The notes: generated from the sequence alone by a model not told the origin. A stretch of DNA of 64,000 bases from Chlamydiia bacterium (GCA_963804085.1 CAWDOQ010000010.1:64001-128000), one strand, 5' to 3'. Counted from the first letter of the stretch, positions 5,802 to 64,000 are shown. Translations and numbers: made by a program.

Positions 5802-5878
5802 CATAATAAAAAATAGTTAGTATTTACCTATTCAATATTAAATGTTATAATTTTTATCACTTTTATAAAGGAGATGTT

Positions 5879-7557
5879 ATGACAAAAGCAATCGCGCCAA
5901 CTGCCGCAACAGCCCCTATAATTCCTAATCCTCCCCCCATCACAGCGGAGTCCTCCTGCTGCACAGATCTCTTCCTGCGCGTGCAGGCTGTCTGGAACGC
6001 TTTCTTGACTTTGCTTGTAGCTATTGTCGACTGGTGCGCGTGTCAGATCCATGGTCCCACGGGCAAAAGCCAGCCTCTCGTGATAGATTGGGAAGAGCGG
6101 TTGCCGCGTCGTGCGCCTATTAGGCTCCCTAGGGATTTATATCCGAAAACAGCAGAAGAAAAAGCAGAAGAGACTCTTAAGAATCAAATAGAAATATTCG
6201 ATAGGATGCCAAGCTTGGGACGCTTCTTAAAAAGCTACATACCCGAACATTTGCCGCTCCAAACAAGAGCAAGGCAGATCAAAGCGGCCATCAATAACGA
6301 GGGCATTCTTTTCCAGTGTAGCCAATACCCAACATACACAGCCTGGAGATGTGGAAGGCTACACATGGCACTGTAATAAAACACGTTTACTACTTAAGTT
6401 AGGAGCCAATCCCAACGGGAAAAGCGATAACGCCTGGGGTTATGTTCCGCTTCACTGTGCTGTATTCAGCGGATCCACGCTTGCCTATGAAGAGCTGCGA
6501 CAAGCAGGAGCCAATCCTTGGATAAGGGAATACCAGGGTTACCGACCAGGGCAAACACCCATTGCGCTTGCTTATCACATCCTCGCATCAAATATGCCGT
6601 TAGACGACTATTTTTGGGAGATTGCACGAAAAAAAGAGCACAGCCTAGCTCACTATTTTCCAGATCGGTATTTTACTCCAGCTTCTTACTCCAAACCGGG
6701 CACTTTAACTGACGTCCAAAAGATGATCGACTTCGAGGTGGAAAAAGCAACTGATCATATCCAAGCTGCCCAACCGGTGCACGTGGACCGCCCATTGCTA
6801 AACTTATCGCAAGCTACTACCTTGCCGGTGATCCAAACGAGCATGGTGCAAATCTTGTGGAGGATTACAAAAGCTTTTACATTAGTTCGGATCCCAATAC
6901 CAAAGGCGTGCAAGATCTGCTCAAAGGCAATCCAACAGCAACCATGACAGAGCAGCTGGCGATGATCCAAAAGAGCGTAGAGACAAGTAACGAGCTCTTT
7001 TTGACTGTAAACCCACAAGCAACATCTGAACTGCACAATGGAACTGAGCTCTTCCTAAGCTAGGGGCCAATCCCAACAAGCGTGCCACCTTGGGTAATTT
7101 GCAGAATTTCACACCGCTCCACGCAGCTGTCCTGACCCGCAGTCCGCTTGCATATAAAACTCTACGCGCGTTTGGCGCCGATCCCACAATGAGGCTGGGA
7201 TCTGCCCAAGACGGAGACACCTGCATAGAAATGGCACAAAGAATGCTTGCTGCAAACCCTAAGATATCAGCGCACGAATATTTCCGTGACTTTGTTCTTC
7301 GAGCGGGCATACCAAAAATACCAGGAAAAGTTTTCGATACACCTTATTCTTACGATCTTCAGCTTTTCCCTCACACATATGTACATGCAGTACTGAATAA
7401 TCAATATGCCTCTGATGGCTTTGGCACAGAAAAAGATCTGCAAGAGATCCTCGACTACGAAAGGATGCTCCAGAGCTCTGTCGCCCAAGAGGTCCACAGA
7501 CACTACGAACTCCCTGCAGACATCGCCACAACCGTAGCCGACTACGCTCAAGAATAG
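5879..7557 (+). pseudogene. Ankyrin-repeat effector-like gene split by three frameshifts (about 559 aa if corrected)
   Basis: Four ORF pieces join with +1 C near 6313, -1 C near 6792 and -1 A near 7057. Two LGANPN...PLH.AV ankyrin units. Confidence 0.75.
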
Positions 7558-7562
7558 CCTTG

Positions 7563-7949
7563 TTAATGAGGTAGAATTTGTAGCTTTTCTATGCCGGCAT
7601 CAATGAGTGTGTCTAGCGTTTTGCTAATCGACTTGTGCATCGCTATTGCTGCCTTTGCAACATAATAATGGCGTTCGCTGGTTGTTCTGTACGCGATATT
7701 GCCTTTGAATTTGTCTTTTTTTATTGGCACTGGTACTGGCTCACCTTGCTTGAGATAAAGTCTAACCGCGGCTTCAATAGCTTCTTTGATATTTTCCAAC
7801 CCTTCTTCAATGGTCTCCGCATCAGTGCAAACCCCAGGAAGCTCATTCACTCGAATGATGTAGTAATGCTTTCCTTTATGAGCTTCTTGCTCAATGGTAT
7901 ACGACCAGTTCAAGTTAAGGTAGTACTTTAAGCTTTTTTTAATACCCAT
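7563..7949 (-). CDS. hicB: HicB-family antitoxin
   Basis: ELPGVCTDAETIEEGLENIKEAI; C-terminal RHH-like FKGNIAYR. Confidence 0.85.
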   Translation of the reverse strand: MGIKKSLKYYLNLNWSYTIEQEAHKGKHYYIIRVNELPGVCTDAETIEEGLENIKEAIEAAVRLYLKQGEPVPVPIKKDKFKGNIAYRTTSERHYYVAKAAIAMHKSISKTLDTLIDAGIEKLQILPH

Positions 7950-8169
7950 GGTCTCTTAAAACCTCTTTTAAATCGCGAATTTGATAAGGCAAAAGCTGCG
8001 ACCTGCGCTTTATACATACATTTTTCGGATACTCGTTTTTTCTAAATACATGATGAGAACCTCTCACGTCCACTTTAAAGCCTAGTTTCAGCAAAATATT
8101 TTCGGCCTCTTCATAGGAAACATCCCTGCCAGACAGGATTTTTTCTACTATCTTTTGCCATTTGCTCAT
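7939..8169 (-). CDS. hicA: HicA-family mRNA interferase toxin
   Basis: 76 aa with LGF...RGSHHVF; overlaps hicB. Confidence 0.85.
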   Translation of the reverse strand: MSKWQKIVEKILSGRDVSYEEAENILLKLGFKVDVRGSHHVFRKNEYPKNVCIKRRSQLLPYQIRDLKEVLRDHGY

Positions 8170-52092: not shown

Positions 52093-53214
52093 ATGCACCG
52101 CCTTCTCCCTCTTCTTTTCTTCTTAGCAACTCCTCTTTTTGCCACTCATGTTTTATTCGATACAGATGAACTCGATGCTGACAAAAAGGCTTTGATTTTT
52201 GATCTGATCATGGTGCATGAACCACCCCGCTCGCTGCCATGCATCGATCTTGAGCAAATGGCGCATCTCGAGTGGATCGCTCCCACTGCATGGCAAATAG
52301 GTGTCTTGCACGCCTTTTTTCATGATCCTGCGATACGAGAAACCATTTTGGCATCTGCAGAGCTCGAACCCCTGACCTATGATGCTGCAGTGCATAGATG
52401 CTTGCCTCACGCTGAAAATATTGGGGAGATCCAGAGGCTCTTCGATGCCGAGTCACAAACTCTACCCAACCTTAGCACCCTCTTTTTTCAGATCAACAAA
52501 TCGATAGCAGAATTATATGAACGAGCAGAAAGATCCGATTTGGAGATGGTGCGTCTTGCTCTTTCCGAGCTTCCTCCCTTTGTCGAATGGCGGGAAAGAG
52601 GGTTCCCATTCTGGAATTCGCCGTGGATTTACAACCAAAATTCTGCGGCGATCTTCTATAGCGCACTAATGGATGAAAAGCTATTGAGCAAAGTTATCGA
52701 AATCGAACATCTAGCCCACGAGCAAGGCGAGTGGGTGTTATACCGAGGTTATTCCGGATCAGGCTATCCCACAACACTCCAAGCGGGTGGAAACGGAAGC
52801 CACGCCCTCTCCTTTGGCTCGACATTGCTTGGCGGCACATTTTTTTCACTCGAAGCATCGGCTTTAACCTACGCCGAACCCCACACAGACCAAGGAGAGT
52901 GGAGCTTCCTCGCACTAAGAGTCACGCTTGATGAGATGCAAGAGCTCTTTCGTGTAGGTCCCCTGCACCCCTTCCTTCAACTCTTAGTCGATGGCGAGAT
53001 GTTCCACGCTCACACAAAAATCGCAGCAGTTACGTCCGCCGACTTTAGAACAAAGCCCCTCGATGGCTACTTCATGGCCTGCAACCGCCACTGCCTAGAT
53101 CCAATCGGGTACATCCTGGCATTAAAAATGACTCCGCAAGAGCTGGAAGAAAAGTTCCAGACCCTCTGCCAAAAATCCGGCACGATTTTGAAGAACCAAG
53201 ACGCTAATCTTTGA
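52093..53214 (+). CDS. Hypothetical exported protein
   Basis: Signal peptide MHRLLPLLFFLATPLFA; long ORF. Confidence 0.65.
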   Translation: MHRLLPLLFFLATPLFATHVLFDTDELDADKKALIFDLIMVHEPPRSLPCIDLEQMAHLEWIAPTAWQIGVLHAFFHDPAIRETILASAELEPLTYDAAVHRCLPHAENIGEIQRLFDAESQTLPNLSTLFFQINKSIAELYERAERSDLEMVRLALSELPPFVEWRERGFPFWNSPWIYNQNSAAIFYSALMDEKLLSKVIEIEHLAHEQGEWVLYRGYSGSGYPTTLQAGGNGSHALSFGSTLLGGTFFSLEASALTYAEPHTDQGEWSFLALRVTLDEMQELFRVGPLHPFLQLLVDGEMFHAHTKIAAVTSADFRTKPLDGYFMACNRHCLDPIGYILALKMTPQELEEKFQTLCQKSGTILKNQDANL

Positions 53215-54331
53215 AGCCAAGCCGGTATTGAATAGCAAAAACTGCTACAAAAACCAGAACTACTCCTGACATGATTGCCATTGGGGAAAGAGGGTAGGAG
53301 TAAAATAAAGCTAATATGGCAAAGATGCCTCCCAGATATACCCCTTTTCGGATTTTCAATTTGGGTATAGCGATGTGATGGAGAAGAGCAAAGGAAGCAA
53401 GGCATAAAATGAGCGAAAAACAGAATGTGTTTTTTAGATTCTGGTCTATCTGCGTATTGGATATGAAATTTTGTGCGCAAACACCAATAATCATCAAACT
53501 GTTAATCAAGGGAATATGACTGTAGATATAGGGCTGTCCGGAACCTAGTGTGCACTTATAGTCAGATACTTGAGTAATCGCGTAATACTGCCCCCAAATT
53601 AAGATTGCTAATGCAAATGCCATGATACTGGTTACCACAGATCCGGGATGCCAACTTGCCGATTTCAGACCAAACACGACAGAAGCGATAAGTTGTCCCA
53701 AGATAATCACAGTGAACGACCCAAATCGTTCCGGGATATACGTAGTGTCAAGCGGCGCTTTCGATAGAACTCTCTTTCTGCCAACCCACGGAAAGATGAG
53801 GTAAATAGACATGCCTAAGGTCCACAAAATAAACTTGTTCGGCGGATCTAAAAATAAGGAAACGATCCAACAAATTGTTCCCAATCCAAATCCACCGATA
53901 TAAAAATGCATCATGTTTTTCGGAGCGCTCTTGTCATAAAGAGGTCTTAAATAGAGAACAAGCAGTGAAATTTGCGAAATTATAAAGCCAATGGAGAACC
54001 CGGTTCCACCGGTTTCCAGCGCTGCAGGAATGTGTATAGCCATGACTGCGCCCGAAAACATGATAACGAATGTCATCAGCCAGTGAATAGCATCGTTATT
54101 ATCAAAACGCGCTGCAAATACAGTATAACTCACCCAGCTCCACATGCAAGGGACGAGCAGAGCAGCACATTGCAAGAGTCCTATAACGGTGAAATTATTT
54201 GACAGCCTGTCTGAAAGCTGCACCACAATCACAGCAAAGATCAGATCAAAAAATATTTCCAGCCATGTCGTATGCCTCTCCCTTGATTCGTCGGGCAATC
54301 TCAGTAACGTGGGACGTATAAAGCGTGCCAT
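53204..54331 (-). CDS. ltrA: Low temperature requirement protein A family
   Basis: TWLEIFFDLIF, ERFGSFTVIILG, YSHIP. Confidence 0.85.
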   Translation of the reverse strand: MARFIRPTLLRLPDESRERHTTWLEIFFDLIFAVIVVQLSDRLSNNFTVIGLLQCAALLVPCMWSWVSYTVFAARFDNNDAIHWLMTFVIMFSGAVMAIHIPAALETGGTGFSIGFIISQISLLVLYLRPLYDKSAPKNMMHFYIGGFGLGTICWIVSLFLDPPNKFILWTLGMSIYLIFPWVGRKRVLSKAPLDTTYIPERFGSFTVIILGQLIASVVFGLKSASWHPGSVVTSIMAFALAILIWGQYYAITQVSDYKCTLGSGQPYIYSHIPLINSLMIIGVCAQNFISNTQIDQNLKNTFCFSLILCLASFALLHHIAIPKLKIRKGVYLGGIFAILALFYSYPLSPMAIMSGVVLVFVAVFAIQYRLGFKD

Positions 54332-54337
54332 GAATTC

Positions 54338-55234
54338 CTATTGTAAAAGACGCATCCCTTCACGCAGAAGAGCTGGATCTTTTGCGTGATGCCCAAATAG
54401 AGCTAAATAAGTACAGCTAGAGATCGCTCGCAATTTGGCAAGCTCCCATGTCTCATTGGAAATGTTACCATAAGCCTGTTTAAATTTTGCATGTGCAGCA
54501 GGAGGTAGAAAGCTGTGCGCAATAGCAAGATCGATCGCAGGATCTCCATAATGCACATCGCCCCAATCGATCACTCCGCACAACTTGTGGTTCACGTCGA
54601 CAAGGAGATGCCTCACGTAAAAATCCCCATGCACAATTGCTGTAGCTGCAGGAGCTCTTGTCCTCTTTATACTTGCAAGACGCTCGAGTATTTCTTGCTT
54701 CTCTACAAGGCCTAGAAGCGCAAGCTCCTCGATATTTTTCTGAATCTTACTGTGTAGCTGCGCAGGATCGATACGACTTAAGTTATCGGCAGGGATGTGA
54801 CACGTAGCAATCAAAGACGAGGGCGTAGCATGCAAAATAGCTAAGAAGCGAGCGATCGGTTCCGCAAGAGAACTTCTCTCATCTTCTGAGAGGTTCATAT
54901 GACATGCAGTGAATCCCTGAAGCATTTTGTACCCGATGAATAACCAGGGAAAATCCCCGCTTGGCACTCCTTTCCATTCCGGTATGGGAATAGGAAAAGG
55001 AAGCCGCCGTCCGATCTTGGGTAAAAAACACCACTCTGCTTCCAAAAGAGGAAGGGCGACCTTTCTCCTGGGAAAACGAAAGATCCACTCCTCATTGATT
55101 ACAAAAGCCGTATTGTCCCATCCAGCCCCAAGCAACCGAATCTTTTCAGCATGAAGGTGTGGAAACTGCTCCTGCACTAGTTGCAGCGCAAGCGAAGGCT
55201 CGATAGTCTGTTCTGCTTCCCATTGATGCGGCAT
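54338..55234 (-). CDS. Aminoglycoside phosphotransferase (APH/ChoK) family
   Basis: GWDN, RFPRR, VHGDF, GVIDWGD, GDPAIDLA. Confidence 0.88.
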   Translation of the reverse strand: MPHQWEAEQTIEPSLALQLVQEQFPHLHAEKIRLLGAGWDNTAFVINEEWIFRFPRRKVALPLLEAEWCFLPKIGRRLPFPIPIPEWKGVPSGDFPWLFIGYKMLQGFTACHMNLSEDERSSLAEPIARFLAILHATPSSLIATCHIPADNLSRIDPAQLHSKIQKNIEELALLGLVEKQEILERLASIKRTRAPAATAIVHGDFYVRHLLVDVNHKLCGVIDWGDVHYGDPAIDLAIAHSFLPPAAHAKFKQAYGNISNETWELAKLRAISSCTYLALFGHHAKDPALLREGMRLLQ

Positions 55235-55890
55235 TATTCCCTTCTCTTTTTCTCTGGCAAAGTGGTTTGGTACTTGATCTCATCAGGATTAGGAAAATGC
55301 TTTTGAGAATGTTTTAAAAGCGCCCAAATCAGAAAAATGGCAGGAATCTTTTTCTCATCAAGACGCTTGCCATCTATCAGCATCACTTCCCAATTCTGCA
55401 CATAGTAGTCGCGCCAAGAAGGCCAATAAGTTCCCGTAGGCATCCAGCTCCAGAGAGCAACAGCAAGCGGTTTTTTATTTTTCCCATCGCGGAAGACGAA
55501 ACACTTGCCATCTCCTTCTGCTTGTACAATTACAAGAAGCTCCTCATTCGCAGATAAAATCTCGACCCATGTCGAGGAATGGAAAAAACCATCCGACTCA
55601 AGTCTTACATGAGCAATGCAAGTGCCGGCACAGTCAAAAAGCGAATCAAAGCGGTTGACCCAGAGCTTCTCCCCTTGCTCGTTATAAAAATCGAATACGC
55701 CATAGTCGCTGCTTAAGATAGTGCCTAGATGCTTTCCTTCTTCAGCCACACGAAACGCACGCAGAGCACGATCTTGCGTAACATGAAAGTGATCAGGACA
55801 CTCAAGATCGACAGATGCTGCCTTTTCAGCAGACTGGAGGCTAGCAATAAGACTGCCCAGCACTAAAAGATATGCGTAAATTCTACTCAT
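55234..55890 (-). CDS. Hypothetical exported protein
   Basis: Signal peptide; beta-rich, no recognised family. Confidence 0.6.
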   Translation of the reverse strand: MSRIYAYLLVLGSLIASLQSAEKAASVDLECPDHFHVTQDRALRAFRVAEEGKHLGTILSSDYGVFDFYNEQGEKLWVNRFDSLFDCAGTCIAHVRLESDGFFHSSTWVEILSANEELLVIVQAEGDGKCFVFRDGKNKKPLAVALWSWMPTGTYWPSWRDYYVQNWEVMLIDGKRLDEKKIPAIFLIWALLKHSQKHFPNPDEIKYQTTLPEKKRRE

Positions 55891-55951
55891 TCTTCTTCAA
55901 CTTCATTTTCAACCAATTCCCCAGATGCCCAATTATCATATCACTATATGG

Positions 55952-56013
55952 TTGAAAAAATAAGAAAAAGATGATATACAACAAATTGTTGTGACAAAAC
56001 AACAAAACGTTGT
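55952..56013 (+). promoter_or_regulatory. Promoter plus two palindromic operators
   Basis: TTGAAA-17 nt-TATACA; ACAAC-N5-GTTGT at 55978-55992 and 55999-56013. Confidence 0.65.
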
Positions 56014-56019
56014 GGATAT

Positions 56020-56625
56020 ATGCCATCTATTTTGAAGCTTTTTGCTAACCCGACGCTTCCTGCCATTCTCAGCTTATTTTTGCTGAATCCGGATGAAGAA
56101 TTATACCAATCGGATATCGCCAAGAGAATTGATAAAGCGTTAATGCAAGTTCAAAGAGCGCTAAAGACTCTCGAAGAGATTGGCCTTGTTACGATCACTC
56201 GCCGGGGCAAAATGGTATATTACAAAGCAAGAAGAGATCACCCTGCTTTTGCCGATCTTAGACACCTCTTTTTGAAGACTATCGTTTTTGAGAACACCAT
56301 CCTCAAAACACTTCATCCTTATCGAGACAAAATCGACTTTGCCTTCATTTTTGGCTCCTATGCAACAGGAGAAGAGTCCTCAAGCAGTGACATCGATCTT
56401 TTCTTGGTTTGTAACATCTCTCTGCGAGAGCTGTCAAAAGTGTTAAGTCCTCTTTCAGAAAAATTACAACGAGAGCTGAACCCGGTAATCATCGGACAAA
56501 AGGAGTTTAAAAAAAGAATTTTAGGAAAAGACCATTTCGTGCTAAAAGTCATTAGCTCTCCAAAAATTTGGATCATCGGCAATGAAAGCAACTTTGAACG
56601 ACTGGTTAAAAGAGGAAAAGCTTAA
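56020..56625 (+). CDS. wHTH plus minimal nucleotidyltransferase (MNT antitoxin-like)
   Basis: N-terminal HTH; IFGSYATG...SDIDL. Confidence 0.88.
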   Translation: MPSILKLFANPTLPAILSLFLLNPDEELYQSDIAKRIDKALMQVQRALKTLEEIGLVTITRRGKMVYYKARRDHPAFADLRHLFLKTIVFENTILKTLHPYRDKIDFAFIFGSYATGEESSSSDIDLFLVCNISLRELSKVLSPLSEKLQRELNPVIIGQKEFKKRILGKDHFVLKVISSPKIWIIGNESNFERLVKRGKA

Positions 56626-56630
56626 GAATA

Positions 56631-57803
56631 TCAGCGGAGGGAACAAGCAGAGAAACAGATGCTGCAAATGCCGCTTTTTAGATAGAAATCGGTAGCTATC
56701 TTCCAGAGCCGCGCTGCAGAGGCCGCAGGATCTATGGCAAGCGTTGCGAAATTGGGTTCGTGAATGAAGTGCTCTCCTGTCCCCGTCTTGATATAAACAA
56801 TGGCGTGACCAGCATGAGTATCTGGTGATAAACCCACATGATAAGTTCCGTGCGGTAATGTGTTTACGATCTTTTCAAATTCTAGGAACGCATCTTCATT
56901 TGGTTCTTCACAGACATAGATAGACACCATGTGTGACGTACAACCAAAAGTGTTTACCATAATCTCATCCTGCATCTCTTCCACTTGAGCTCTAATTGTA
57001 AACGTATCTCTAATAGTTTCCGTTCGGAGGTTTTGCATTTTTTTCGCCAGTTGATCTTGCAAGTTTGTCAGTTGCTCCGGCATCTCCCTGTGGCCCAATC
57101 CTTTAATCCTGTGTTGTTCAGCTTTAAGCCAACTTTGCACTTCATCATTTTTGGCATTAAAGTTTGGTTCCAAAGCAGCCTTTTCGGTTGCAAGAAGAGA
57201 AGAGGTGTCCAGAGCTGCGTAGAAGGTTTGAGCAAGCTGAGCTTCATCGGGAGCACCATCTACGTAACGACCGGCGATTGCTTTCACAGCTTGTAGCGGC
57301 GTTTTTCCAGATCGAACTTCTGTGAGATAGTGGGAGATAAAATCGAGACTCATGCCGAAGCAGCACCCATCAGACGCCATCTCTCTTCTGGAAAGACGAG
57401 CTTTATCAAGCGGTATCTTTGCTGTTCCTATCTGCGACCAGCGATCGATCGCCGCGTCTCCATAGATATTTCTGAGTGCCTCGTTTTCGGTAGTGTGATT
57501 CGGAAGAAGCTCTTTGACTCTTGTTGAGGAGTTAATACAAAAATCGACAACTTCACTTCCAAAGCTTAGATAGGCGCCCAATTGATTGACTGCTCGATTC
57601 GTTTGATAGCTTGCCCAAGAGGCGTAATGGTGAGAAACTGCAGAACTGACTACCCAGCTACAGAGTGAGAGGATTTCATAAAAAAGCGCAAGGCACAGCC
57701 TGCTTATCGAATCTGCAACCACTCGGATACACTGGAAATCCCTATCGCAAAAAGCGTTGGAACTTCTTACATCGGCTACATTTGCTACTGCACCTAAAGA
57801 CAT
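56631..57803 (-). CDS. Putative YopT/C58-like cysteine protease effector
   Basis: GCCFGMS, GHAIVY, FIHEPN. Confidence 0.6.
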   Translation of the reverse strand: MSLGAVANVADVRSSNAFCDRDFQCIRVVADSISRLCLALFYEILSLCSWVVSSAVSHHYASWASYQTNRAVNQLGAYLSFGSEVVDFCINSSTRVKELLPNHTTENEALRNIYGDAAIDRWSQIGTAKIPLDKARLSRREMASDGCCFGMSLDFISHYLTEVRSGKTPLQAVKAIAGRYVDGAPDEAQLAQTFYAALDTSSLLATEKAALEPNFNAKNDEVQSWLKAEQHRIKGLGHREMPEQLTNLQDQLAKKMQNLRTETIRDTFTIRAQVEEMQDEIMVNTFGCTSHMVSIYVCEEPNEDAFLEFEKIVNTLPHGTYHVGLSPDTHAGHAIVYIKTGTGEHFIHEPNFATLAIDPAASAARLWKIATDFYLKSGICSICFSACSLR

Positions 57804-57921
57804 GAAAGCACTCTGTTAAATTAATATCATATAATTATACATTAATTACTAAATTGATAATAGAACTATATATGTATTATTAAAATATTTAATTGATTGA
57901 ATTGTCTCTACGAAGGGCTCA

Positions 57922-58542
57922 TTAATCACTTTCCATAGGAGAGCTTTGCGAAAAGGTGAGCCGCAATTCTTGACTATTCTGGGAAGAATCATCTGGTTTT
58001 GATCTCTTTGCATTGGAAAGCTGAGACTTTCCAATCACCCTCTCAAGATCGATTGTAGAAACTTTGTCGATTTCTGCCATTTTTTCATTTTGAGAGCAAG
58101 CAATGTGATAACAAGACACCACCCGTCTCGGCAATGCATCCATGCTAGGAAGAGTTTCATACACCAGATTCTCATATTCAGACAGTCTCGCCCGACTAAA
58201 AGTCGTGGATGGTAAAAGCAGAGATAGAATTGTAACAGAGGTCCAACTGCTTTTTGGTAAACCGCTGCTCATTTGTAAGCGCTGCGTGTGAATCACAACA
58301 GAGCAGATCTTCTGTATCGAATCTTGAAATAGACCAGGATAGCCTAACGCGGTAGAGAGCACAGCGATACCGCCCACAATTGTCTTAATATCTTTTGGAT
58401 CAAAAGTCGTTCCGTGAGAGACTTCACTCTGCCAGCCAGAAATGCTTGCCTCGACTATGCCCCTCATCTCCTCATCGGTATCATTCCAATAATATTGTTT
58501 GATGATTCCCACCCATTTTGCACCCGATGCTTCTACACTCAT
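57922..58542 (-). CDS. Hypothetical protein
   Basis: 206-aa ORF with GGAGG RBS. Confidence 0.6.
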   Translation of the reverse strand: MSVEASGAKWVGIIKQYYWNDTDEEMRGIVEASISGWQSEVSHGTTFDPKDIKTIVGGIAVLSTALGYPGLFQDSIQKICSVVIHTQRLQMSSGLPKSSWTSVTILSLLLPSTTFSRARLSEYENLVYETLPSMDALPRRVVSCYHIACSQNEKMAEIDKVSTIDLERVIGKSQLSNAKRSKPDDSSQNSQELRLTFSQSSPMESD

Positions 58543-58616
58543 AGCTACCTCCCAAAATGAGGTGACATGATATCAGACGCAAAAAATAAAAGGATCTTTT
58601 TCTCATCCGGCGACTA

Positions 58617-59810
58617 TTATACAGCGTAATCGGCGATGAGTAACGTACATCGCAAACAGACGTTGCTATAAGATACTAAGAGAGCTTCCTGCTCTTGTTG
58701 AGTGTGTGTTACATACTGAGTCGCGTAAATTGCGTGTGATTTACTAAACCAACCCGTTTCGTTGCTTAGATAAGAGTAGAGATGCGCCTTAAGTGTGGGA
58801 TAGAAATTTCTGAGAGTGGCTTCATAATGCATAGAGTTTTGTACTGTATTCATCTCCACAGGAATGCCGAGAGGGATAAGAGTGAGAGGAATTGCTTTGA
58901 TGTCTGTTTGTTTCCCTCGGGCGGTGAGCGTCCATTCAAAATCGTCTTCTAAGATCTTCTTGCGCCAGAAAACAACTGGGAAGATATCATTGAGGAGAGA
59001 GACCGCCTCCGGTAAAACGCGTTTTTGCAGTTTTTTTGTAAAAAACTCCTGAAGTATTTGACTTCTTGCAACCAATCCTATGTTCGGAAGAAGTTCATGC
59101 GCGACCTTTTGGATTTTTTCGGCCTCATCTACCAGTTGTCTGATGTTTTTTGCCGGGAATACGACAGCTTCATTGGGCAGCATGAAATAGACTCCTTTTG
59201 TTTGGATACAATGGAGCAGAGGAGCGATTGAAGCACTCTCAGACAAAAATGCAACCAACTTCAATGATACATCGAGAACAATTCCACTACTTGCGCATAA
59301 GGCTTTAAGCACATCCTCCGCAAAAAAATCATTCTGTTTCATAGCAGAATTGAGCTGTTCGTATGAAATGTTAAAAAGAAAAATCGTGTGGTTGCGCTCA
59401 TCGGGATCATATTCTGAAAAATTTGCATCGGCCACGTTCTTTAATCGTACCATTAAGGGGGTTCTGTCTTCCTTTATCATGCGAGTAAGAAAGGGAACAA
59501 CTTTAGAGGTTCTTCCGCCAAATTGTGTAAGAGCCACTCCTCTTGCTTCTAGCGGAAATTGCAGCTCTTCCAAAGATTCAAGCGCTCTATCACAGGCACT
59601 AGATATTTTTTCTAGTTTAATACGTTGTATGACAGATAAGAGAAAAGATGGGCCAAACTTTATGTATCCGCTTTCAAGGAGGCTCTCTTCAAGGTCGAGA
59701 CCGAGCTCGACTTGGTCTAGGATCTCATCAGGAGAAGTAAAATCTCGACCAACTTGAGCAAAAGAATCTTCTGTCTCCCATAAACGGTCCTTAACAGAGC
59801 GCACACTCAT
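58617..59810 (-). CDS. Hypothetical protein
   Basis: 397-aa ORF with GGAGG RBS. Confidence 0.65.
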   Translation of the reverse strand: MSVRSVKDRLWETEDSFAQVGRDFTSPDEILDQVELGLDLEESLLESGYIKFGPSFLLSVIQRIKLEKISSACDRALESLEELQFPLEARGVALTQFGGRTSKVVPFLTRMIKEDRTPLMVRLKNVADANFSEYDPDERNHTIFLFNISYEQLNSAMKQNDFFAEDVLKALCASSGIVLDVSLKLVAFLSESASIAPLLHCIQTKGVYFMLPNEAVVFPAKNIRQLVDEAEKIQKVAHELLPNIGLVARSQILQEFFTKKLQKRVLPEAVSLLNDIFPVVFWRKKILEDDFEWTLTARGKQTDIKAIPLTLIPLGIPVEMNTVQNSMHYEATLRNFYPTLKAHLYSYLSNETGWFSKSHAIYATQYVTHTQQEQEALLVSYSNVCLRCTLLIADYAV

Positions 59811-60098
59811 TTTTGCCCTCCCTTATGTTAAAACAACTTCGGACTAGAAAGTGTAGCATGCTCATTTTTTTTAGAGATAGAGTCAATTGGCTCGGTAGTA
59901 AAACGGTTGGTCACTTTGAGATGCGGCTCGCGCGAAGCGTTTCAGACATATTCTAGTTTTCTACACCTAACTGAAAACTTGCCTCCGAAAGAAGATGTTA
60001 TGGAAGCTTGAGGGACGAGTTAAAACAGAAAAAACTGGTCAAACTATCCGGAAAGCTCCTAAGCTGATGAAAGCTAATTTCTTTAAATTCTATACTTG

Positions 60099-60791
60099 AT
60101 GTCCAAAAAGCCAGTAAGCAGACTAGAAATACTCTTTCCATCCCGAAAGCGAATATGGGTAACGGGTTTTCCTGAATGTATTCTTAAAGATGATCTATGG
60201 AAACTGTTTCGACCATTTGGTGATATTGATTCAATATCGATCGTACGCAACTGCATGAAGCAGCCAATAGCATTCATTGATATGAAAAATTCTTCGGATG
60301 CTCAGAGAGCAATTCGGGATTTGGACAAGCAGTTTTTCTTAGGTAGGAATATTACCGTACGCGAATCGCAACAAAAATTTTATGAGGAAAGGTTTATTTA
60401 CGCGTTGTTAAGTTTTGATAAACGTGAGTGTTATATTGGGGAGACATGCGATACAATAAAGCGTTTCCGCCAGCATTTAAACGGGAAAGGAGACAAATCG
60501 ACGTCTTCGTGGATTTTAACTTTAAAGGATAGCAAACCAAAGCCAATAATCCTGGAGATCGTACAGCCAGGCTATGATGCTCATTTTCAAGCAAATTTTC
60601 TAGAGACAGTGTGGCGCCTAGTGGCCAGTATATGTTGTTGGGAGGTGATCAATTTTCCTTTCCTTTCGGATATCAGAGAAGAACTTAAAGCAGCAGTCAC
60701 ACCTAGAATTAGTAAATGGTTGCAAATTCTCGACAAGGTATCCGAAATCTCGCTGCTTGAAGAACAATGCACCGCGAGGCGCCCTAACTAA
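60099..60791 (+). CDS. RRM (RNA-binding) plus GIY-YIG nuclease fusion
   Basis: IWVTGFP...LFRPFG...IAFIDM...AQRAI; then FIYAL...CYIGET...RFRQH...LE. Confidence 0.7.
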   Translation: MSKKPVSRLEILFPSRKRIWVTGFPECILKDDLWKLFRPFGDIDSISIVRNCMKQPIAFIDMKNSSDAQRAIRDLDKQFFLGRNITVRESQQKFYEERFIYALLSFDKRECYIGETCDTIKRFRQHLNGKGDKSTSSWILTLKDSKPKPIILEIVQPGYDAHFQANFLETVWRLVASICCWEVINFPFLSDIREELKAAVTPRISKWLQILDKVSEISLLEEQCTARRPN

Positions 60792-60802
60792 CTCAGCATT
60801 TG

Positions 60803-61576
60803 CTACGCAACGAGAATATCGCGAGCTTTCTCTCTTTCCGTCCAGAGAATGGGTGTCGATTCATAATTCCGAAGAGCATCTATTGTGGAACTTGAGATAG
60901 TTGTGCTTGTATCATTTAACAAAGCGAATAGCTTCGAGTCCGCAGGACGCGTTTCGCGCGTATCTAACCACTCGAACATCAATAACTCAACGGACTTTTT
61001 ATCTGGTGCATTTAAAACTTGGAGAAGCCTCTCTGGAGAATTGCGTGACTTTGGAATCACAAAATTGAACATATGATCGAACCCACTTTTCCCAGAGAAT
61101 TTGACCATCGGAACATAACGAATGTTCGCTGAATCCAGCCAACTGCCCACATCCTCGATAAAAAGACTTTTAACATTAGGCGTGGCGAGATAGAAAAGAT
61201 CGTTGATGGCCAACATTGCTTGGATCAAGCTGTGCTTTTTCAGCGCAAAATCATGCAAAGATGCATGCACAATGAGTTGATCATCTTCCAGAAGGACTCC
61301 AAACCCACTAATGCAGGTTTTGAGCATACTTTGACGCCTCGGAGTCTTCAGTTCACACCCCGAACTAATCAAATCATTGAGAATATAACCATCATCGGTA
61401 AGCAAAAAACCATCACCCTGTTTCTTTACATATATTTGAAGACAATCATTGTGACGATCAAGATGCGGGGTGGTAATTTGGACCCATTGATTATCAATCT
61501 CTTTGAGAACAGTTTTGTCTTTCAGCCAAACGAAGTAGTTCTGCATAAGGGCGTCGATGTCCCTCTTAATGCTCAT
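60803..61576 (-). CDS. DUF1828/DUF1829-like protein
   Basis: ITTP.LDRHND..QIY, LTDDG, GKSG..H.F; family recalled from motifs. Confidence 0.8.
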   Translation of the reverse strand: MSIKRDIDALMQNYFVWLKDKTVLKEIDNQWVQITTPHLDRHNDCLQIYVKKQGDGFLLTDDGYILNDLISSGCELKTPRRQSMLKTCISGFGVLLEDDQLIVHASLHDFALKKHSLIQAMLAINDLFYLATPNVKSLFIEDVGSWLDSANIRYVPMVKFSGKSGFDHMFNFVIPKSRNSPERLLQVLNAPDKKSVELLMFEWLDTRETRPADSKLFALLNDTSTTISSSTIDALRNYESTPILWTEREKARDILVA

Positions 61577-62027
61577 GTAATCCCTCGATATAAGGTTCTT
61601 CTACGATATTGCAGTATTCAAAAAATTCTTCAAGGGTTTTCCGAATATTCGTCAGGTCAGAAAATTCTTTGGGCAGCTCATAAGCCCACTTATCTCCGTA
61701 ACCCTCTCGATATAGATGGATATGCGGACACAAAATCTCAACTCCATCGGGATTTCGATGAGGGGAACCCCCAAGATCAAGGCGCACCAGTACTGTGTTT
61801 TTTCTTGCTCTTTTTTGAAATGTGTTCTTTCTCATTTCAATGCGACTACGCGAAATATCTAACCCAAAATGTTCATGGGACTCCTTGGACCTAAGCAAAA
61901 CCCGCAAACTGCCTCCCGAAATAGGAAACTGATGCCGCAGATCATCACAACGGTATTTTGCCATCTTTAGCAAAGCGTCAGCTTCACCTTGAGCCATTTC
62001 AGACATGCGAAAGCTATGCCAATTCAA
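61566..62027 (-). CDS. DUF6978-like protein
   Basis: LVRLD...PHRNPDG...CPHIHLYREGYGDKWA; overlaps the DUF1828/1829 gene. Confidence 0.7.
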   Translation of the reverse strand: MNWHSFRMSEMAQGEADALLKMAKYRCDDLRHQFPISGGSLRVLLRSKESHEHFGLDISRSRIEMRKNTFQKRARKNTVLVRLDLGGSPHRNPDGVEILCPHIHLYREGYGDKWAYELPKEFSDLTNIRKTLEEFFEYCNIVEEPYIEGLHEH

Positions 62028-62418
62028 TTCTTAAGAAAAGAGAATTCTAAGCTATAGAATGATTGAAAACAAGATGCTCTTATTTCTCACTGTTGACTTG
62101 GAGCTTCGAAAACTAGTCCCTTTCCGCCCGCCATTTTCATCGAACAGGTTAGGAAGATACGACTTGATGGACTCAAACCATCGATCCCCTTATTAAAAGT
62201 GAGGGCATTTCTCAACTCAACCAGCTTTATTCAACCCCTATGGGCATCACTATAAAGAATTTGAGTGTGGAATGCTACTGATTTTTCTGGGATAAAGAGG
62301 GTAAAAAATGCGGCACGGTGCACCGTTTATGCACCGTCTTTAAAACATGGTTACTTCTATTGAAGCAGCTAGTTTGAATCACTAAAAACTTAATTGGACA
62401 AATAGTCGTCTTCGCCTT

Positions 62419-64000
62419 TCACCTCTCGGATCTAGCTCCATGCTGAATTAACCAATCCAGCACATAACGAGGACATCTACCGAAATCTTTGGCCCAATCA
62501 AGAATTGTGCCACAATGAGGAGGACGGTTGCCATAATGGATTTTGGCATTGATATCAGCTCCTCGAGATAACAAAAACTCTAAGATCTCAAAGTTCTCAT
62601 CAAGCCTACGTTGATTCTCTACAGCTCCCATAAAAACTGTTGGAGCGCCATCGACTCCATCATGCCATTTACTCCAGGCGTTAACATCCATTTTTTGCTC
62701 ATCGATTAACCATTTCAGTAAATTCAAGTCACGACGAGCAGCACAATGTAATGCATTGCATCCCTGTGGAGTAAATTCATTCAAAGAAGCCCCTCTTTTT
62801 ACAAGTTCTTTTAACACGTCAATGTTGGCGGCGTGATAAGCTCGATGCAAAGGTTTCCAACCCTCATCATCAACTGCATGTAAATCAGCTCCCCTGTCAA
62901 GAAGTTCTAAAGCAATTTTTTTGTCATATATGCCCACATGTAATGGGGTTCTACCATATAAATCTTTCGCATGAACGTCAGCTCCTCCTTTTAGAAGAAT
63001 AGAAAGCGCTTCGCTGTCTTGAGATTGTACCGCATAATGCAATGGTGTTTGTCTTTGAGCTAACTTAATATCAACATCTGCGCCGGAATCGATTAGGAAT
63101 TGAAGAATTTTTGGGTGACAAAATGCTGCGGTGAGAGCACATTCCTTTGGCCTACTCCTAGATTCGCTTTGAGTTATTTCATTTATATTTACTCCGCTCG
63201 CAACCAACAATTTTACCGCATTTAGATCACCGCATTTAACTGCACAAAGAAGCGGGGGAATATTTTCTGGATTGTCGCCATACTTGATAAGGATATCGAT
63301 TAACTCTTGATTCTCGGTTTTTTGAGCATCACTTAGCATTTGAGAAAATGCGATTTTCTTATTCTCTTTTTTATGTGAGACTGTATCGACAGAAAAAGAA
63401 GTATTTAACGAACCGTTTGCTATAGCAGGTGTTCGAGCAACTTTTTCTATCTCCCACTTCAATTGCAATATCTTGACTTGTCCAGTTAATTGGTTGCCGC
63501 GAACCATCGCCATAAGCACATGTCCCGCCCCTTCCATCCATTTTCCGTTTTGGAATTGGTTTATCGAGTGATAAAGTCCAAGGAGAATTTGAATTACAAG
63601 TGAAGCGATTGCAAGTTCTAAACCACCATCCAGAAAAAGAACAAGGTAAAGAGCATTGTTGACAAGGCTCAGACAATGCTCTAGTGACTTTTGATATTCC
63701 CCGACATATAAATTCTGGACGAGGTGTGTAAGTTCGACAATAAGATCATGACCGGTTGTGATTAGCATTCCAAGTGGGTGGGCAAAAATTGTTCCAGCTA
63801 GAGCGATGATAGAGATGATGGTTTGAAGTAGCTCATACCCAATCTCCCCTGAACCACCCTTTTGAATTGCAGAAGTAAGGCAAAAGATCGAATGCACTGT
63901 CCGTACACCGCCCATAGCAAGTGAAAGCGGGAAACTAAGAGGTTTATAAAGACTAACAAAAGGTAGAGCGACCGTTCCAACTCTTTTGCATCCATCAAAC
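62419..64000 (-). CDS. Ankyrin-repeat protein with hydrophobic N-terminal region (partial, frame open to right edge)
   Basis: TPLHYAV, GRTPLH, GWKPLH, NALHCAA repeats; frame stays open beyond 63915. Confidence 0.85.
   Translation of the reverse strand, partial: FDGCKRVGTVALPFVSLYKPLSFPLSLAMGGVRTVHSIFCLTSAIQKGGSGEIGYELLQTIISIIALAGTIFAHPLGMLITTGHDLIVELTHLVQNLYVGEYQKSLEHCLSLVNNALYLVLFLDGGLELAIASLVIQILLGLYHSINQFQNGKWMEGAGHVLMAMVRGNQLTGQVKILQLKWEIEKVARTPAIANGSLNTSFSVDTVSHKKENKKIAFSQMLSDAQKTENQELIDILIKYGDNPENIPPLLCAVKCGDLNAVKLLVASGVNINEITQSESRSRPKECALTAAFCHPKILQFLIDSGADVDIKLAQRQTPLHYAVQSQDSEALSILLKGGADVHAKDLYGRTPLHVGIYDKKIALELLDRGADLHAVDDEGWKPLHRAYHAANIDVLKELVKRGASLNEFTPQGCNALHCAARRDLNLLKWLIDEQKMDVNAWSKWHDGVDGAPTVFMGAVENQRRLDENFEILEFLLSRGADINAKIHYGNRPPHCGTILDWAKDFGRCPRYVLDWLIQHGARSER

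Follow-up and report, generated by a model that had tools for sequence, protein, structure and literature searches.

A rare island-borne chlamydial protein joining an RNA-recognition motif to a predicted GIY-YIG nuclease

The window analysed here, a 64,000-nucleotide stretch of a chlamydial genome (G000), carries a gene whose product (P0001) joins a complete RNA-recognition motif (RRM) directly to a GIY-YIG domain. The gene is real, under selection and accessory, and a nuclease is the predicted product. We infer, with about an even chance of being right, that the protein is an SLX1/YhbQ-type nuclease tethered to single strands that acts as a defence or toxin-like effector. A defence-type role fits because candidate defence genes adjoin the gene in both loci that were read, because two relatives are fused to an AbiEi domain, and because the gene lies on a strain-variable island.

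Results

An earlier note on this DNA had proposed the fusion, and we found it to be real. Both domains exceed the curated Pfam cut-offs (20.7 bits for RRM_1 and 22.6 bits for GIY-YIG) and agree with fold comparisons; HMM and structure validation, on which that note had staked its claim, both support the fusion. In Pfam, RRM_1 (PF00076) matched residues 19-85 with an E-value of 7.6e-14 (51.8 bits, profile positions 1-69 of 70), and GIY-YIG (PF01541) matched residues 99-155 with an E-value of 9.1e-6 (26.3 bits, profile positions 3-55 of 78; 28.0 bits in the whole-genome scan). The RRM_1 cut-off was also passed in Pfam by the relatives P0007, P0157 and P0158. No NCBIfam model exceeded its cut-off on the protein, and PHROGs gave no match. 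Pfam detected no RING or zinc-finger domain, and the end of the protein is modelled as one helix, in which A199, R203 and W207 are conserved. The start codon is backed by homologues with the same MSKK N-terminus. Coordinates of the gene, its domains and its neighbours are collected in Table 1.

Table 1. Features of the locus (window positions unless a contig is named)
Feature	Position	Strand	Evidence or remark
LtrA ortholog	53204-54331; L013:533-1681; L027:10784-11908	- (window)	76-84% identical
HTH + Pol-beta nucleotidyltransferase, PADLOC candidate PDC-M05A	56020-56625	+	PADLOC E 5e-53
Divergent intergenic region (the gap of the earlier note), 288 nt	59811-60098	.	between two divergent genes
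RRM + GIY-YIG nuclease (predicted) + long C-terminal helix, ORF of 230 aa (P0001)	60099-60791	+	ATG 60099, TAA 60789-60791
RRM domain, residues 19-85	60153-60353	+	Pfam RRM_1, model fold, Foldseek, alignment
GIY-YIG nuclease core (predicted), residues ~97-190	60387-60668	+	Pfam, profile vs PDB sequences, VIA, invariant columns
Long C-terminal helix, residues 194-226	60678-60776	+	models, fold search, alignment
DUF1828/DUF1829 protein, PADLOC candidate PDC-M24B	60803-61576	-	Pfam; PADLOC E 1.3e-105
DUF6978 protein, PADLOC candidate PDC-M24A	61566-62027	-	Pfam; PADLOC E 6.8e-55
tRNA-Lys(UUU) 3'-half remnant, 44 nt	62161-62204	-	Rfam tRNA 21.2 bits (below gathering score), ARAGORN, blastn
Ankyrin-repeat protein	62419-63915	-	Pfam; on tRNA-Lys-flanked islet

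A full-length AlphaFold model, built with 10 family sequences as input, reached a pLDDT of 86.9 and a pTM of 0.72, with the first 13 residues disordered. Its N-terminal part has the beta-alpha-beta-beta-alpha-beta order of an RRM (strand 17-22, helix 30-40, strands 43-49 and 57-62, helix 65-75, strand 86-89). The best Foldseek match of the full model was the Fox1 RRM (E 6.8e-7, TMt 0.87, rmsd 2.1), and the best solved RRM matches are eukaryotic. Residues 96-230 were modelled separately (pLDDT 82.2). When this C-terminal domain was aligned by VIA-align, the I-TevI catalytic domain came out best, with a Z of 9.0 over 85 residues at 2.9 A, and four more GIY-YIG chains scored between 5.8 and 7.5; PD-T4-3 gave 7.5, the UvrC N-terminal domain 6.7 and T4 EndoII 6.5. 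Foldseek E-values for the same domain were weak (best 0.16), yet GIY-YIG enzymes filled the first 11 rows. The protein thus has the GIY-YIG fold in common with I-TevI, the UvrC N-terminal domain, T4 EndoII and the type IV restriction enzyme PD-T4-3, but it lacks their homing-, UvrC- or restriction-type DNA-binding domains and any intron or phage context.

By sequence, the GIY-YIG domain is of the SLX1/YhbQ kind. The nearest solved chains to the C-terminal profile were At-HIGLE (7wme, E 8.4e-4), yeast Slx1 (7cq2, E 4.6e-3) and UPF0213/BH0048 (1zg2, E 0.14), and in the fold search HIGLE and Slx1 were the only matches whose alignments reached into the long C-terminal helix. At-HIGLE is reported to work as a homodimer that cleaves branched DNA (PMC9071465). 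With the SLX1/YhbQ group (UPF0213, COG2827-type) our protein shares the ...YIG.T...R..R.H.NG... block, the ...E..W helix and, downstream of the core, a long helix. Unlike SLX1, it lacks a RING or zinc finger and an SLX4-type partner, and it carries an RRM in front; its gene is rare and island-borne, whereas the SLX1/YhbQ lineage is conserved. Three GIY-YIG genes are present in the window's genome: the gene described here, UvrC and one for an 86-aa YhbQ-like protein. The last shares the ...R..aHLNGK block with our protein (hhalign 72.6%, 25 columns).

The earlier note had read the IY, YIG, Arg, His and downstream Glu of the nuclease as retained, and an alignment of 10 relatives (34-70% identity to the window protein) bears this out. 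All of them are invariant there, within FIY (Y101) and CYIG (Y112, G114) and at R122, H126 and E169, and N185 is kept in 9 of the 10. In the C-terminal domain profile, the Arg, His and Glu fall on their counterparts in SLX1-lineage chains. We take the Tyr, Tyr, Arg, His, Glu and Asn to correspond to Y6, Y17, R27, H31, E75 and N90 of I-TevI. All canonical catalytic residues being conserved, the active site is apparently intact and nuclease activity is predicted. In consensus RRMs, aromatic residues of RNP2 and RNP1 lie on the sheet. Here, an RNP2-like RIWVTGF contains a conserved W20, and an RNP1-like QPIAFIDM contains an invariant F59, with I/M at a position that is usually aromatic. Because RNP1 is partly degenerate in this way, the predicted binding of nucleic acid by the RRM is not assured.

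Comparison with the 68%-identical homologue at a second locus (L013) gave a dN/dS of 0.18 for the whole protein, with 0.15 in the RRM and 0.17 in the GIY-YIG part; dS was about 1 and therefore near saturation. This dN/dS speaks against a one-off decaying chimera, the alternative that the earlier note had raised against its own proposal.

The fusion, which that note set against the usual stand-alone bacterial RRM proteins, proved to be rare. A word-indexed search of 5.8 billion clustered proteins returned 6 matches, and a full HMMER scan of 1.84 billion representatives returned 817 at E <= 0.001, nearly all of them multi-RRM proteins. The nuclease part was covered by 5 of the best 150 of these 817 (P0003, P0007, P0008, P0020 and P0023). 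A search with the nuclease-domain profile gave 10 proteins, and P0157, P0158 and P0159 were added by cluster look-up. Nine distinct sequences have both domains, one of which (P0156) is a truncated gene call; P0020 is a stand-alone 128-aa GIY-YIG relative, and there are some fragments. The family thus comprises about a dozen sequences among billions. Two of 129 genomes of its chlamydial family encode the full protein, the window's genome and G428 (the MAG that contains L013); a sample of 400 genomes from the order gave one carrier. Among 400 genomes sampled from the phylum, the window's genome was the sole strong match and two others gave weak, partial GIY-YIG matches; none of the 14 genomes from the genus of the second carrier matched in this sample. 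Each carrier genome has one copy. A scan of metagenome contigs gave a single match, the contig of L013 itself, and the ESM Atlas gave no usable match. No longer fused form (628-2000 aa) was found at E <= 1e-5, which is weak evidence. Viral contigs yielded 94 pattern matches, none of them a relative, a result that neither helps nor hurts the defence reading. No description of an RRM-GIY-YIG fusion was found in the full-text literature searched, a body of text that excludes subscription journals.

Of 40 related genomes searched with the whole protein, 22 gave a match confined to the RRM, within stand-alone frames of 95-153 aa. Stand-alone bacterial RRMs (the cyanobacterial Rbp type and chlamydial proteins of ~95-153 aa) belong to the same Pfam family as the RRM described here; they have no enzyme fused, whereas this RRM is fused to GIY-YIG. 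In 11 related chlamydial genomes such stand-alone RRMs score up to 38.3 bits, equal to the best single RRM domains among the global matches listed. As they score as high as the others, no eukaryotic origin of the RRM is needed. A stand-alone RRM protein was not found in the window's genome, where the fusion is the sole RRM_1 match (assembly completeness 91%).

The gene lies within an insertion that is low in GC, varies between strains and adjoins a tRNA-Lys gene. Housekeeping genes (RsmB, McsA/McsB and IspD) extend to about 55 kb of the window; on the far side, starting near 66 kb, are frr, pyrH, tsf and rpsB. GC content is 0.39-0.45 from ~55.5 kb to ~65.5 kb and 0.45-0.52 on both sides. The PDC-M24B gene converges on the target gene across a 12-nt spacer, and the PDC-M24A gene overlaps the start of PDC-M24B by 11 nt. 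This PDC-M24A/B pair also matches function-unassigned PHROG families. The tRNA-Lys remnant is 93% identical to an intact gene ~3.2 kb further on (L019:1864-1938, about 65363-65437 in window numbering). The ankyrin gene is followed, outside the window, by a gene for a DUF6602 NucC-like PD-(D/E)xK nuclease (E 7.1e-20); since the intact tRNA-Lys and its 3'-half copy bracket these two genes, they form a classical tRNA-flanked islet. No integrase was found inside the insertion.

Contigs from sequencing run X3, which represent a ~92%-identical relative, track the window from 56627 to 59864, so the DNA from 59865 onward is island DNA. The 19 nt that come next in this relative exactly match the flank on the 3' side of the intact tRNA-Lys gene, and the relative therefore lacks 59865 to ~65347, that is, the target gene, PDC-M24A/B and the islet with the ankyrin and DUF6602 genes. 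The left junction of the island, at 59864/59865, falls within the upstream gap, whose first ~54 nt are common with the relative.

That gap had been suggested to hold a partner RNA (59811-60095, 285 bp), a suggestion for which we found no support. Rfam searches of 59000-62500 gave only the sub-threshold tRNA remnant and a chance RAGATH match. Folding of the gap was no better than that of shuffled sequences (z +0.68; 146 of 200 shuffles fold as well), and the numbers of promoter-like (3) and terminator-like (2) sites are about what chance would give (2.6 and 1.4). At the homologous locus the corresponding gap is 32 nt long and is not conserved.

Genomic context was read for two loci, the window and L013. 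In L013 the homologue lies 32 nt downstream of a PDC-S13 gene (PADLOC E 1.2e-115), with an AbiEi/AbiEii pair 2.3 kb upstream and an ABC-F gene after it. Between the AbiE pair and the homologue are a gene for an RNA ligase with a PHA02142-type OB domain (5835-6872, minus strand) and the Bro-N/PDC-S13 gene (7120-7968, plus strand). The downstream genes include Tag- and Ada-like repair genes, named by reading ORF translations. Besides the target, the only gene common to both loci is LtrA, ~6 kb away and 76% identical. Of the 129 family genomes, only 3 have an LtrA ortholog; the third of these lacks an RRM-GIY-YIG gene and carries other genes beyond LtrA. The two genes are in opposite relative orientation in the two carriers of both, and the DNA beyond LtrA differs in all three genomes.

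Two relatives, P0157 with 358 aa and P0007 with 352 aa, align end to end at 55% identity and have about 150 extra N-terminal residues before the RRM. These residues match AbiEi by PADLOC profiles, to which the assignment is confined (E 1.8e-24 for P0157 and 1.1e-13 for P0007); Pfam did not detect them, and BLASTP of P0157 against the AbiEi of L013 found nothing. The match spans about 48-190 of 192 profile positions, which corresponds to the C-terminal domain without the winged helix. In Dy et al. 2014 (PMC3985639), the AbiEi C-terminal domain is reported to be sufficient for toxin neutralisation, and AbiE systems are reported also to stabilise mobile elements. Direct AbiEi-AbiEii binding is reported in a 2026 preprint (10.64898/2026.01.19.700257). 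Although P0007 and P0157 share the AbiEi C-terminal domain with AbiE, P0001 has no AbiEi part, and neither it nor its neighbours in the window matched AbiEi or AbiEii in Pfam or PADLOC. The effector of AbiE is the DUF1814 nucleotidyltransferase AbiEii, whereas here it would be a predicted nuclease.

The window protein has no convincing match in PADLOC-DB v2, the best being PDC-S14 (E 0.0014), over 32 residues of the GIY-YIG motif only; the L013 homologue had no PADLOC match. The PDC families that adjoin both genes belong to a set of 145 candidates, themselves untested, that were obtained by guilt-by-embedding (bioRxiv 10.1101/2024.01.29.577857).

Discussion

As an effector of a bacterial conflict system, the protein would serve anti-phage or anti-mobile-element defence, or would arrest growth in the manner of a toxin. 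The RRM would hold the enzyme on ssDNA, on transcripts, or on the single-stranded arm of invader forks, flaps or R-loops, and the GIY-YIG site would nick or cut the adjacent nucleic acid. Nearly all studied GIY-YIG enzymes are known to act on DNA, and DNA would be the most likely target here as well. The AbiEi domain of the long forms would be a regulator within the same chain. The earlier note had suggested an RNA-sensing or RNA-guided defence nuclease; the genomic context agrees with the defence-type role, and nothing indicates an RNA-guided mechanism.

A toxin of this kind could instead stabilise the island rather than act against phages: loss or de-repression would kill cells that lose the cassette, and AbiEi would be a cis antitoxin in the long forms. 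The AbiEi C-terminal domain placed in front in two relatives, the small integrase-less cassette and the reported stabilisation of mobile elements by AbiE systems all agree with such an addiction role, but no antitoxin candidate or other partner is evident beside the short form in either locus, and we hold this reading to be unlikely. It overlaps with our preferred reading, as AbiE-type modules serve both purposes. Secretion into a eukaryotic host, where a eukaryote-like RRM would take the nuclease to host RNA or DNA, comes to mind in a chlamydia whose island also encodes an ankyrin-repeat protein, the more so as the model has a disordered N-terminus and the best solved RRM matches are eukaryotic. 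However, stand-alone chlamydial RRMs score equally well, the neighbours are bacterial defence candidates, and the relatives are fused to a prokaryotic antitoxin or regulator domain. We found nothing positive for the host-targeted effector that the earlier note had entertained; the AbiEi fusion argues against it, and we consider it quite improbable.

Much the same low probability attaches to a housekeeping or repair role, in which the RRM would direct a structure-selective SLX1/YhbQ-like nuclease to flaps, forks or R-loops. Among solved structures, those nearest in sequence are indeed SLX1-lineage cutters of branched DNA (PMC9071465), and Tag- and Ada-like genes lie downstream in L013. Repair genes are not neighbours in the window, however, and a gene found in only two of 129 genomes of the family and absent from the close X3 relative, in a genome that already has UvrC and a YhbQ-like protein, is not what this role would lead one to expect. 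A homing-type endonuclease that stands free and selfishly propagates its own cassette would account for the I-TevI catalytic domain as best fold match and for the different neighbourhoods in the two genomes. Against it, each genome has a single copy, and the gene is free-standing and chromosomal, outside any intron, intein or phage; an RRM stands in place of a sequence-reading DNA-binding domain, and the sequence is nearer to SLX1/YhbQ, the NCBIfam group I intron endonuclease model scoring 15.4 bits against a cut-off of 56. Homing is in our view very improbable. Host effector, repair enzyme and homing nuclease are all less likely than a single-strand-tethered defence or toxin-like nuclease.

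A more specific form of the defence reading is possible, though we put it forward as doubtful. The protein may be a single-protein immune nuclease, in which the RRM senses single strands or transcripts of an invader and thereby licenses the SLX1-type GIY-YIG domain. AbiEi-RRM-GIY-YIG proteins would then combine toxin and antitoxin domain in one chain and represent a new AbiE-like branch with a nuclease replacing the nucleotidyltransferase. GIY-YIG nucleases take their specificity from the fused domain. A classical RRM in that position was not found in the literature searched, which here again excludes subscription journals. Microviruses infect chlamydiae, and their ssDNA genomes or replication intermediates could be triggers. 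Should the protein prove to act in defence or as a toxin, a single-strand-sensing nuclease would be added to the prokaryotic immune repertoire, the AbiEi antitoxin domain would be linked to a second, unrelated effector class, and the gene would join the small number of defence candidates known in obligate intracellular chlamydiae. A mere niche accessory nuclease would be of modest interest.

Additional observations

Seven sequencing runs with the region were found, with no RNA run listed among them. Pieces that are 99-100% identical over 60347-61003 occur in runs X1 and X2, which may be the source sample. In a near-identical contig of 5483 bp, the predicted protein (P0002) is 100% identical to about residue 205 and then follows another frame of the same DNA. 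The switch is therefore due to a single-base indel within the C-terminal helix or to an assembly error there; runs X1 and X2 show no indel of this type.

A second variable spot lies 3.5 kb upstream, where window positions 55234-56627 are replaced by 704 unrelated letters in the X3 relative. In the window this segment carries the PDC-M05A-like gene and one for a 218-aa protein that matches no family. Between this spot and the gap, three consecutive proteins (390, 206 and 397 aa; 56631-59810, minus strand) matched nothing in Pfam, NCBIfam, PADLOC or PHROGs, and they are kept at ~92% identity in the X3 relative, which lacks the cassette. By eye, Cys and His motifs of the 390-aa protein may recall a papain-like protease.
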